64,000 nucleotides of DNA. Source: Chrysomallon squamiferum. Lineage: Eukaryota; Animalia; Mollusca. Below, piece by piece: positions 44,301 to 47,300 of the stretch. A program made the position numbers and the translations under genes. The stretch covers positions 39,804,001 to 39,868,000 of the forward strand of contig CM022670.1 in assembly GCA_012295275.1 (NCBI GenBank). The letters are read 5' to 3'. Positions within the stretch are counted from its first letter, which is position 1. Every line of letters starts with the position of its first letter. A model generated the notes under the pieces. The model saw nothing but the letters and a program-made list of their open reading frames with translations. It was not told where the DNA came from and searched no databases.

Positions 44301-47300
44301 ATTTAGGTTTATACTGAAAATTTGTCCAATATTTTAAAACTCTTATCTTCAATAAATTTATTTCATATTTTTTAATAATTCAAAATATATATATATATAT
44401 TTTTTTTTATATAATTTGCATTAATATGAAGTACATTGTGATGGCAGTCTGGAATTATTTGATTTTTTTAAATGTGAAGAGTGCCAACTTTCTTTTTTGC
44501 ATTTGTTTGTTATAAAGTAATGCATTTAAGTAAAGAAATATTATGGATTAATGAAATAATTGTTAAAAAACTCAATACAGATTATTATTTTTTCTAAATA
44601 GTAAGCTGACTATATTTTACTTTTTAATTTCAGAATAGTTTTACTTTTTTTGCAACTTATAATCAGAAATATATAACAAAAATTTAAATAAAAAATATTC
44701 CTTTATATTTTGACACTGAACATTCAAATAAATGTTTTTTGAGGGGCAGCAGGCAGTGAAGATGTTTTTTTTTGGTGGGTTTTTTTTTGAGAGATTATTC
44801 CAGTGTGTTATTTTGTTGTTTCTATTAAAATTAATTTGTTACATTTTTAAAACACACATTTGCATAAATAAGAAGTTCATTATGATGATAATTTGGAATT
44901 ACCATTTGATTTTTTTTAAAAACTGAAACCAATCAAGCGGCATTTTATTCTGAAAGAACTTCTTGATTAACATTTACTGAAACTAGTTTGATCATTTATT
45001 TTTTGATCTTTGAAAAATATTTAATTGTAAAGAAAGCGGAATACAATATTGAGGAATAATAAAATAACTGACTAAATTTTGAGTTTTTAAATTTTTTTAA
45101 AAGTTGGCTCATTTTCTAGTTTTTAGTTAATGCTTTGTGGATAATATTAGTTAAATTAACAAGAACTGAAATGAAACAAAAAGTATGATGATTCTTTGAC
45201 ATACATACCAGTATAAAACAAAAAATAAATATTAGTGTCTGTCATTATATATTTCACTTGCTCTTCAAAGTAGAATATTTATCTGCTTGATTCATATAAT
45301 TAATGCTATGTACTTGGTTACATTTTTTTAAAATTTACTATTTCATTAATCAGAGGTTCATTTATGATGATAATTTGGAATTACCATTTGATTAAAAAAA
45401 ACATGAAAATAATCAAGCGGCATTTAATTCTGAAAGAACCTTTTTTTAAAAAAAAAAACATTTTTCTATATTATTTTAAAAACGTTTAAGGACTGAATAA
45501 ATATATTATTAACAAAATAACTCATTTTCTAAATAGCTTTTACTTTTGCTAATATTTGTTATATTATTATAATATCTTGTTTCTGTTGTTACAGCTCAAA
45601 ATCCGTTTTGCCAACATGAAAGAAGGTGCTAAAATTGTTTCCTCAAAAGCTTTTTGTCCTCTGAATTTCCGTATCACTGACAGGAATCTTAGTGGTAAGT
45701 ATAAAGAAATAAAATAAGAATTCCTCAGAGTAATAACAAACTGCTTGGTTGTTAACAAAATGTAATAGTCATAGTGCCATTGAAAGTGAAGGGAGGTAAC
45801 TGTCTTTGGTTTGAAAGAAAATAAAAAATAATACAGTATTTTATTTTTTTGTTTTTACTGAATTGAATTGTCTGAATTAAAGATTTTTATAATTAAATGA
45901 ATTGATTTAAAAGAAAAAATTTAATTTTAAACGGGGAGAAAACTGTTAATATCTTTGTTTTTTAAGTCAGGAAATTTTTTTAATATTTAAAAATGTTTAA
46001 TATGAAAAATTTATCTTCAGCCATTGTTTAAAAATATTTCACGTTTAAATGTAATAATTTTGTGAAATCATAAAAATAATAATATAAGATTTTGTAATAA
46101 TTAAGTTCACTTTGGGTGGTAATGTTATTTTACAATTTTTAAAAAAAAAAAAATAATACGACTTTTTAATGTTTTTTATCTATATAGTTTTTATTTTAAT
46201 TTAAAAAATAAAATAAATTCGGATATTTTGTTACTGGTTAATCAGCAAACTAGTGGATGTTTTCCAGATATTACCTCCATTATACATGTTTCTGTGCTGT
46301 CCCCATTACGAGGTGCTGTGTCTTGGACTGGCAAACCAGTCACTTTCTACATTCACACTCTAGACAGAAGTCTGGTGAGTAGAGGCATTTGCAGTTGCCT
46401 CCCTTGACAGGTGGCGCACCAGACGGGCACATAACAGGCTACTAACATTTTCCTTACTAACTCCTTCTCTCTTGTCAAGAGATTTGTTTTGCTGCAGTTT
46501 TGTTTCTGTTTTATTGAAAATCTGTACATTACCTTCAAGAAACATATTTAACTTGATCACAATAATAAATAATAAGAATAAGAAGAACTGTTTTAATACG
46601 CTGTTTTAATATTTGTACTTTAATTGCTTATTTATAACAAGAGAAAATAATATTTTCTTTATTATTAAAAACATGAATATTATTTTCTTTATTGTTAAAA
46701 ACAGACAGCAACAGTGACAAAAACTAATTTAAAAGAGATGTTAGTTGACGTACAGGTTTTTAAATGAAACAGAAACAAACTGCAGACTATCTGCACAGTC
46801 TGATAATCTAGGTGGACGTGTTTTAGTAATCGGGGTTTAATTGGCTGTTGTTTGTAACAAGTGTTTGTGCTATTGCAGATATTGGGACAATCATGCATGT
46901 CACAGAACTGTCGCCTCTCTGTGGTGCTGTTTCCTGGACGGGCAAACCTTTCACCTACTATGTTCACACAATTGATAGAACATTGGTGAGTAACAGGCAA
47001 AGAGATCTGTATAGCCATTTCAGTACTTTTTTTTTTTTTTCTAATTTCGTCCCCACATTTTTTGGCCATAGCATTAATTTTATTTCACATTTTTGGGGCT
47101 GCTTATTAATTTTTAAAAATTTTATTTATTTATTTATTTATTTATTTATTTATTTATTTATTATTATTATTATTATTATTATTATTATTTTTTTTTTTTT
47201 TTGTCCTCAGATATTTTTATTTTTTTATTTTTTTTTATCTCTGATTCTGCATTTCTGAAGGCAAAAAAATAAAAGAAATTAGGAAAATTATTTGTAGCAG

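Follow-up and report, generated by a model that had tools for sequence, protein, structure and literature searches.

Background

Exons 2 and 3 of alpha-tropomyosin and exons NM and SM of alpha-actinin are reportedly steric pairs with a distant branch point, and Dscam exon 17 is said to combine steric hindrance with RNA structure. In the accessible parts of the published reports, about 50 nt is given as the steric limit between donor and branch point (PMC7969005), 60 nt is used as a distance cut-off (PMC13762713), the bipartite Quaking consensus is written ACUAAY-N1-20-UAAY (PMC3875643), and decay of wrong-frame products is listed as one mechanism of exon exclusivity (PMC6071210).

Here we describe an intron that separates two tandem exons, A and B, of the DOT1L gene of Chrysomallon squamiferum and that carries twin TACTAAC motifs followed by a predicted long-range duplex. 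As far as the accessible texts describe the known systems, its components have counterparts in several of them. In human RAI14 intron 10, as here, two ACUAAC copies lie a few bases apart and fit both the branch-point and the Quaking consensus, but those copies stand 34 and 43 nt from the regulated acceptor, whereas ours stand 418 and 433 nt away, beside the donor of the rival exon and ahead of a buried CAG (PMC13004596). The C. elegans protein ASD-2 acts on CUAAC repeats in unc-60, again paired ACUAAC-type copies, where the likeness to our locus is one of sequence (PMC3875643). At Slc25a3 exons 3a/3b and Rbfox2 exons 10a/10b, ACUAAY lies 3' of the activated and 5' of the repressed exon, as here; the evidence there comes from knock-outs in mouse heart, and the available portion of the text mentions no long duplex, whereas one is predicted here (PMC10202634). 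OGDH exons 4a/4b likewise have branch-like motifs near the upstream donor, then pyrimidines, far from the downstream acceptor, but the human distances are 25-41 nt with an AG-exclusion zone, against 70 and 85 nt, 22 AGs and a short tract in our intron (PMC7969005).

For the duplex, the RNA bridge of ENAH, in which long-range pairing brings an RBFOX2 site to a splice site, offers a likeness by prediction (PMC10790352); the known bridges rest on conservation and mutation data, whereas the duplex described here is predicted in one species. The docking-site and selector systems of Dscam exon 6, 14-3-3zeta and Mhc (PMC6071210, PMC10790352) share with our locus tandem exons and intronic pairing, but no exon is looped out by our duplex, which is confined to the A-B intron and for which no competing partner is favourable.

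Results and Discussion

An either-or exon pair in the catalytic domain of DOT1L

The window, by which we mean the whole 64 kb stretch of DNA analysed, holds the DOT1L gene, with homologous proteins tiling about 29400-61500; the closest named protein among the three tabulated was that of Gigantopelta aegis (mostly 76-100% in the short exons and 52-55% in two large ones). Exons A and B both match human DOT1L at about residues 286-321 (best E 4e-14 and 1e-10), which together with the tiling of the flanking exons places them in the DOT1L catalytic domain. Both are 107 nt long and of equal phase, with 73 of the 107 nt identical, and the intron between them spans 504 nt (46375-46878, + strand). Scans of prokaryote genomes and viral contigs gave 0 loci, and the three Rfam matches all fell far below the gathering scores. 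The features to which we refer are as follows.

45595..45694, + strand: upstream exon U, 100 nt (homology; RNA contigs from runs X6 and X7 join 45693 to 46878, GT..AG)
46268..46374, + strand: exon A, 107 nt, human residues 286-320, with Arg300, Val310 and a weak acceptor (homology; A-type annotated isoforms)
46375..46407, + strand: exon A donor GTGAGT and hairpin GAGGCA/TGCCTC at 46382-46401 (hairpin probability 0.90-0.98)
46440..46461, + strand: twin TACTAAC at 46440-46446 and 46455-46461 (matches the branch-point consensus as well as the bipartite Quaking element)
46462..46497, + strand: pyrimidine tract, AAG/GAG at 46477-46481 and stray acceptor CAG at 46495-46497 (small acceptor model; folding)
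46492..46527, + strand: predicted 5' arm of the duplex (folding; no variant in the covering haplotype contigs)
46528..46749, + strand: looped-out AT-rich spacer, 222 nt, with an inner hairpin at 46635-46697 (highly polymorphic, 14 distinct variant sites)
46750..46785, + strand: predicted 3' arm of the duplex (folding; single variant 46764 A>G)
46823..46878, + strand: exon B acceptor region, with candidate near branch sites A46840 and A46857 and the acceptor CAG (46847-46878 aligns in a second species)
46879..46985, + strand: exon B, 107 nt, with Cys300 and Phe310 (homology; spliced to U and D in RNA contigs X6 and X7)
48031..48072, + strand: downstream exon D, 42 nt (loose ends of RNA contigs behind 46985 read into it; frame calculation)

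The segment that the two exons rewrite encloses the active-site W305 loop and I290 of DOT1L; according to the accessible part of one report, loss of W305 abolishes DOT1L activity and I290 contacts H2B-ubiquitin (10.1101/501098). Two positions tell the types apart, human residues 300 and 310 being Arg or Lys with Val in A and Ser or Cys with Phe in B. In gastropods, exon A has changed at positions that are constant elsewhere (Thr or Ala for Gly288, Val for Glu295), and the protein sequence of exon B is identical in Gigantopelta and Haliotis.

Separate annotated isoforms use either the A-type or the B-type exon in nine mollusc and two nemertean clusters, with the types in large clusters read from the 15 members listed. 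Both types occurred in six of the ten clusters of a first set (Gigantopelta, Haliotis, Argopecten, Mizuhopecten, Mytilus and Mercenaria), in all four of a second (Mya, Sinanodonta and the nemerteans Tubulanus and Lineus) and in one of the three of a third (Ruditapes). Among the members listed, isoforms of both types were not found for Patella, Saccostrea, one further cluster and one single-member cluster, and a starfish cluster (3/3 alike) and a crayfish cluster (14/14 alike) held one form only. A Pinctada model carries both copies in tandem, A before B; in the Pinctada imbricata model P0003 the two are fused over an implied gap of 4 nt, probably an annotation artefact.

For C. squamiferum itself, two RNA runs of one study join exon U to exon B at a GT..AG junction and continue into exon D; no U-A, A-D or A-B join appeared in these two runs, whose assembled contigs drop rare forms. 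In run X7 of the same study, one RNA contig breaks off right at the exon A donor, without a loose end; coming from one study, it was given no weight. By frame calculation, inclusion of both exons leads to a stop at 48053 and skipping of both to a stop at 48033, both in exon D and many exons ahead of the end of the gene, so that decay alone could make the mRNA pool appear exclusive. Equal in length and phase, homologous, and present one per transcript in the annotated relatives, A and B are mutually exclusive exons from a tandem duplication, and the pair is real, ancient and either-or. Shared by molluscs and nemerteans, it is put at 500 million years of age.

Twin motifs, a predicted duplex and a buried acceptor

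The letters of both TACTAAC motifs are as the first-pass annotation of this intron had reported them, as are their distances: the branch-type adenines lie 70 and 85 nt from the donor at 46375, with 433 and 418 nt left to the exon B acceptor. Taken singly, TACTAAC motifs occur at chance level in the window (11 on both strands, 9.2 expected), and the ACTAAC pair at 46441-46446 and 46456-46461 is the only one within 20 nt in the 64 kb, against about 0.02 TACTAAC pairs expected window-wide. The pair fits ACUAAY-N1-20-UAAY, with its two parts within the 1-20 nt spacing of a QKI/SF1 switch, and sits 66-87 nt 3' of the weak exon A; the looser Quaking element is common, with 21 copies on the + and 16 on the - strand of the window. 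The pyrimidine tract after the second motif runs for about 15 nt and varies by indels, among them purines inserted in X1. The two motifs may have arisen by a 15-nt tandem duplication that has since decayed, with 10 of 15 letters alike as read from the sequence.

Folding predicts a long-range duplex between 46492-46527 and 46750-46785, and its pairing and two bulges agree with the earlier description, which had counted one mismatch and two G-U pairs where we found none and three. The 35 bp, interrupted by the two single-base bulges, amount to -45.7 kcal/mol, with pair probabilities of 0.94-1.0 in three helix segments. The A-B intron folds better than 100 of 100 shuffles (z -3.85), the intron upstream of exon A giving z -1.28, and of 551 distinct long-range candidates across the window the duplex ranks first. 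Others that reach -43 to -49 kcal/mol are also predicted, namely a cluster at 50619-51150, 58707/58780, 59099/59685 and a loose exonic pair. A multi-copy transposon end was considered as the origin of the duplex and rejected: the 3' arm had no match in any other genomic contig of runs X1 and X2, and the 5' arm a partial match in a single one.

We scored acceptors with a small model built from 17 acceptors of the DOT1L gene (range -1.9 to 10.1), which gave 4.3 for exon B, 0.0 for exon A and 4.0 for the stray CAG at 46495-46497, the second-best in the intron. This CAG has perfect branch motifs 37 and 52 nt on its 5' side. The predicted duplex starts 31 nt past the second motif, a stable helix beside a regulatory site as in an RNA bridge or mask, and begins 3 nt ahead of this strongest stray CAG of the intron, which is predicted to be 0% unpaired; the claim that the duplex hides a CAG and loops out some 220 nt (222 by our count) therefore agrees with the prediction. 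Twin motif, tract and CAG would thus together constitute a complete stray 3' splice site, hidden by the predicted duplex. Along the RNA the motifs are 418-433 nt from the exon B acceptor, or 126 nt via the duplex, and 37-52 nt from the buried CAG. In the folding ensemble the second TACTAAC pairs with 46823-46829 or 46832-46837, with probabilities of 0.15-0.39 and 0.48-0.55.

We favour, with a probability of about 0.4, the reading that a dual site of the Quaking/SF1 type biases the choice between A and B, that the duplex hides the stray CAG and that decay removes double inclusion. In the default state SF1 and U2 would sit on the motif some 70 nt past the weak exon A and, the CAG being hidden, splicing would go to exon B. 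Where a Quaking-type dimer is abundant, both ACUAAC copies would be occupied, and exon A would be activated from downstream while exon B is repressed from upstream. The stem would cut the path from motif to acceptor from 418 to about 126 nt and keep the stray acceptor silent, and nonsense-mediated decay would clear away mRNAs that include both exons or skip both. We give about one chance in three to a lariat forming at the twin motif.

The dual-site reading is suggested because no second ACTAAC pair of this kind exists in the window and the twin matches the bipartite Quaking consensus, because tandem ACUAAC acts as a QKI-versus-SF1 switch in RAI14 in the text available (PMC13004596), and because the motif geometry matches the Slc25a3 and Rbfox2 pairs as their report, seen in part, presents them (PMC10202634). 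The masking role of the duplex is suggested because the second-best acceptor of the intron, with branch motifs 5' of it, is predicted to be fully paired. The first-pass annotation had put forward the ACTAAC copies as a possible QKI/SF1 site by way of caveat, and this matches their spacing and position better than the steric claim that it preferred.

That steric claim holds that branching for exon B takes place at the distant TACTAACs, that these lie so near donor A as to prevent the joining of A to B, that the duplex carries AG scanning past the intervening sequence and that alternative pairings toggle the system; we consider it unlikely. The pyrimidine tract behind the second motif is what such a branch point would have, and the hairpin GAGGCA/TGCCTC at 46382-46401, which holds as described (6 bp, probability 0.90-0.98), brings the first motif to 52 nt from the donor, near the limit of about 50 nt in the accessible part of the OGDH report (PMC7969005). 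All distances nevertheless stay above 50 nt, at 70 and 85 nt linear and 52 and 67 nt with the hairpin, and the tract is short (about 15 nt) and polymorphic. The exon B acceptor, at 4.3, is within the range of the gene, and its last 32 nt are the part of the intron's 3' end that is kept in a second species.

The AGs between motif and acceptor bear on the same claim. Between the first motif and exon B there are 22 other AGs, 16 of them inside the duplex and the other 6 among the 121 unlooped nt, where 5.9 are expected. The intron thus has no AG-exclusion zone, which in the accessible part of the literature normally houses distant branch points (PMC2991248). Most intervening AGs are predicted to be partly paired. 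The earlier caveat that several AGs stay unmasked applies to AAG and GAG at 46478, 46480 and 46860, which lie outside, but not to the CAGs and TAGs between motif and exon B, every one of which falls in a predicted stem or hairpin, a point in favour of the steric claim.

The toggle fares worse. CTTGACA and TGTCAAG, proposed to enclose both branch points, are complementary, but their pairing has a probability of 0.00, costs 9.3 kcal/mol when forced, and a 7-bp match of this kind turned up in 5.4% of shuffles. GAGATGTTAGT (46735-46745) can likewise be written against the first motif, but with a predicted probability of 0.00, a value that is zero partly by construction as the pairing crosses the main duplex and forms a pseudoknot, which the folding program excludes. 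Its rival is a local hairpin with a probability of 0.72-0.89, and the pairing of GAGATGTTAGT with the motif is broken by 46737 G>T in one haplotype. With both pairings unfavourable and near zero probability in the folding model, a conformational switch is not supported.

Variation within the species

Variants were counted on six haplotype contigs from four runs that cover the A-B intron wholly or partly: X1 and X2 cover it whole, X6 covers 46493-46835 with a further contig reaching to 46439, and three X7 contigs lie between 46468 and 46794; X4 was left out for having no contig of its own there, and X5 for leaving most of the intron uncovered. The 222-nt loop holds 14 distinct variant sites (46547 and 46549 counted as one), including deletions of 13 and 30 nt, whereas the 72 nt of the duplex arms hold one, 46764 A>G, which still pairs as U-G or falls at a bulge. 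No two-sided compensatory change was seen in the arms among these haplotype contigs of the species. Further variants outside the loop are 46859 A>G and, within the pyrimidine tract, three indel rows (46465-46467); both TACTAAC motifs are unchanged in X1 and X2, the two contigs that cover them. The contrast between arms and loop gives P 0.087, not significant alone, and the 282 nt outside the loop hold 5 of the 19 variants (P 0.009), with uneven cover and an AT-rich loop.

These counts bear on a second alternative, to which we give a low probability, namely that the twin motif is simply a Quaking-type enhancer 3' of exon A, that exon B uses a near branch site and that the duplex is a neutral inverted repeat. 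A position 66-87 nt 3' of a weak exon fits activation by QKI, similar duplexes are predicted in other DOT1L introns, the arm-versus-loop contrast is weak at the P value just given, and the arms do not align in a second species. Against a neutral repeat, the duplex buries the strongest stray CAG, and its one variant keeps the pairing.

Comparison with relatives

A second species (run X10) keeps exon A intact, with five synonymous and two conservative codon changes making up the seven listed, which give the peptide of P0121. It aligns at 46258-46407 and 46847-47009, and at 80% identity there was no alignment over the twin motif or either duplex arm. Of the 5' part of the intron, 46375-46407 is the sole piece aligned; the last 32 nt before exon B are also kept. 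Compared by eye, the 30 letters that follow 46407 in the second species end in CACAT, four bases, GG and TTTAC, resembling 46428-46442 and stopping at TAC, where the first motif would start, which is no more than a hint of a kept first motif.

Among the 42 metagenome loci fetched, three (L001, L004 and L006) contain the tandem exon pair, and their A-B introns differ widely: 614 nt with clam-type peptides and z -1.80 in L001, 144 nt with z +0.63 and no excess structure in L004, and 53 nt with z -2.19 in L006. For two further lineages, read-through frames of genomic proteins imply A-B introns of 55 nt (P0190/P0334) and 208 nt; the double match of P0215 was judged false and left out. The CTAAY motif is absent from the A-B introns of all three relatives, and the four A-B introns compared share no sequence beyond chance matches of 8-11 nt. 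Across these lineages the exon pair is constant and the intron hardware is not, and in some of them size alone suffices. The twin motif is, from the same comparison, lineage-restricted at best; since it is absent in three relatives, the ancient exon pair does not depend on it everywhere.

Three side observations belong to these sequences. In L001 the exon A donor is predicted to be fully paired in a hairpin at 1128-1214. L004 carries four TGCATG at 854-920, 177-242 nt after exon B, which suggests another regulator in that lineage; we take TGCATG to be an RBFOX-type motif. P0217 is a 757-aa protein with two DOT1 catalytic domains in tandem.

We rejected the idea that structure shortens all A-B introns to about 50 nt: the medians were 43, 58, 48 and 28 nt, and distances as short came up in 5 of 30 shuffles and in 3 of 9 other introns, a control in which several intron ends were off by at least one base. 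For the steric claim this means that the structure-shortened distance from donor to branch point is not distinct from controls, although the introns of 53 nt in L006 and 55 nt in P0190/P0334 do have steric exclusion built in.

The comparison also bears on a third alternative, that motif and stem are irrelevant products of small tandem and local inverted duplications and that exclusivity comes from frameshift decay and other proteins. The length of the 107-nt exons makes decay sufficient, the 144-nt intron of L004 separates the same pair with neither excess structure nor the motif, and some of the shuffles and other introns have as short a distance. Set against this are the rarity of the twin motif, the z of -3.85 and the lower number of variants outside the loop than in it, and we regard a wholly neutral origin as improbable.

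The dual-site reading, which we continue to prefer, is itself weakened in several ways: the second species gave no alignment at 80% over twin motif or arms, and three relatives lack the motif; the looser Quaking element is common in the window, and duplexes of -43 to -49 kcal/mol occur elsewhere in the gene; the tract carries indels, and the motifs may be a decayed tandem duplication. The intron had been called the switch between the exons; the either-or pair, the non-random twin motif and the strong, low-variant duplex burying a CAG survive from that interpretation, but a steric block toggled by competing pairings is not shown. Distant branching with steric blocking of donor A is unproven.

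A wider scenario seems to us the least probable of those considered here. Lineages with introns of 53-55 nt would exclude double use by size; in C. squamiferum the intron would have grown while the branch point stayed next to donor A as the twin UACUAAC, with the extra sequence folded out of the way. A single element would then combine the roles of distant branch point, steric block and Quaking-versus-SF1 sensor, under the control of the decoy-hiding duplex. Quaking levels would then set the version of the active site, and a pair older than the split of molluscs and nemerteans would, by swapping the W305 loop, make two H3K79 methyltransferases of one gene.

Novelty and minor observations

In the literature accessible to our search, no published report of the DOT1L exon pair was found; PMC12153100 and PMC1949830 mention DOT1L but, in their accessible parts, not this pair. 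The A and B isoforms are already present in automatic annotations and the devices are known, and we found no earlier account of the instance in print. The exon pair is the firmer result, rewriting the part of DOT1L with W305 and I290 and kept in molluscs and nemerteans, with one form in the echinoderm and crustacean clusters read. If the element works as proposed, it would link a Quaking-type splicing factor to the active-site version of an H3K79 methyltransferase. With two exons and natural intron lengths from 53 to 614 nt, it would also provide a compact system for studying how exclusivity is preserved when an intron grows.

Elsewhere in the gene, the exon at which the short isoforms of G. 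aegis end is followed by the intron at 58609; no match to the tails of these isoforms turned up in the window. Another strong duplex is predicted in this intron, between 58609-58640 and 58840-58880: an ACTAAC at 58609 comes before a CAG, and it is the flanks of this CAG that would pair with 58840-58880, an arrangement echoing the A-B intron. A dispersed repeat of about 70 nt occurs in the DOT1L introns near 39780, 41320, 44050, 44890, 45370, 47630 and 49500.
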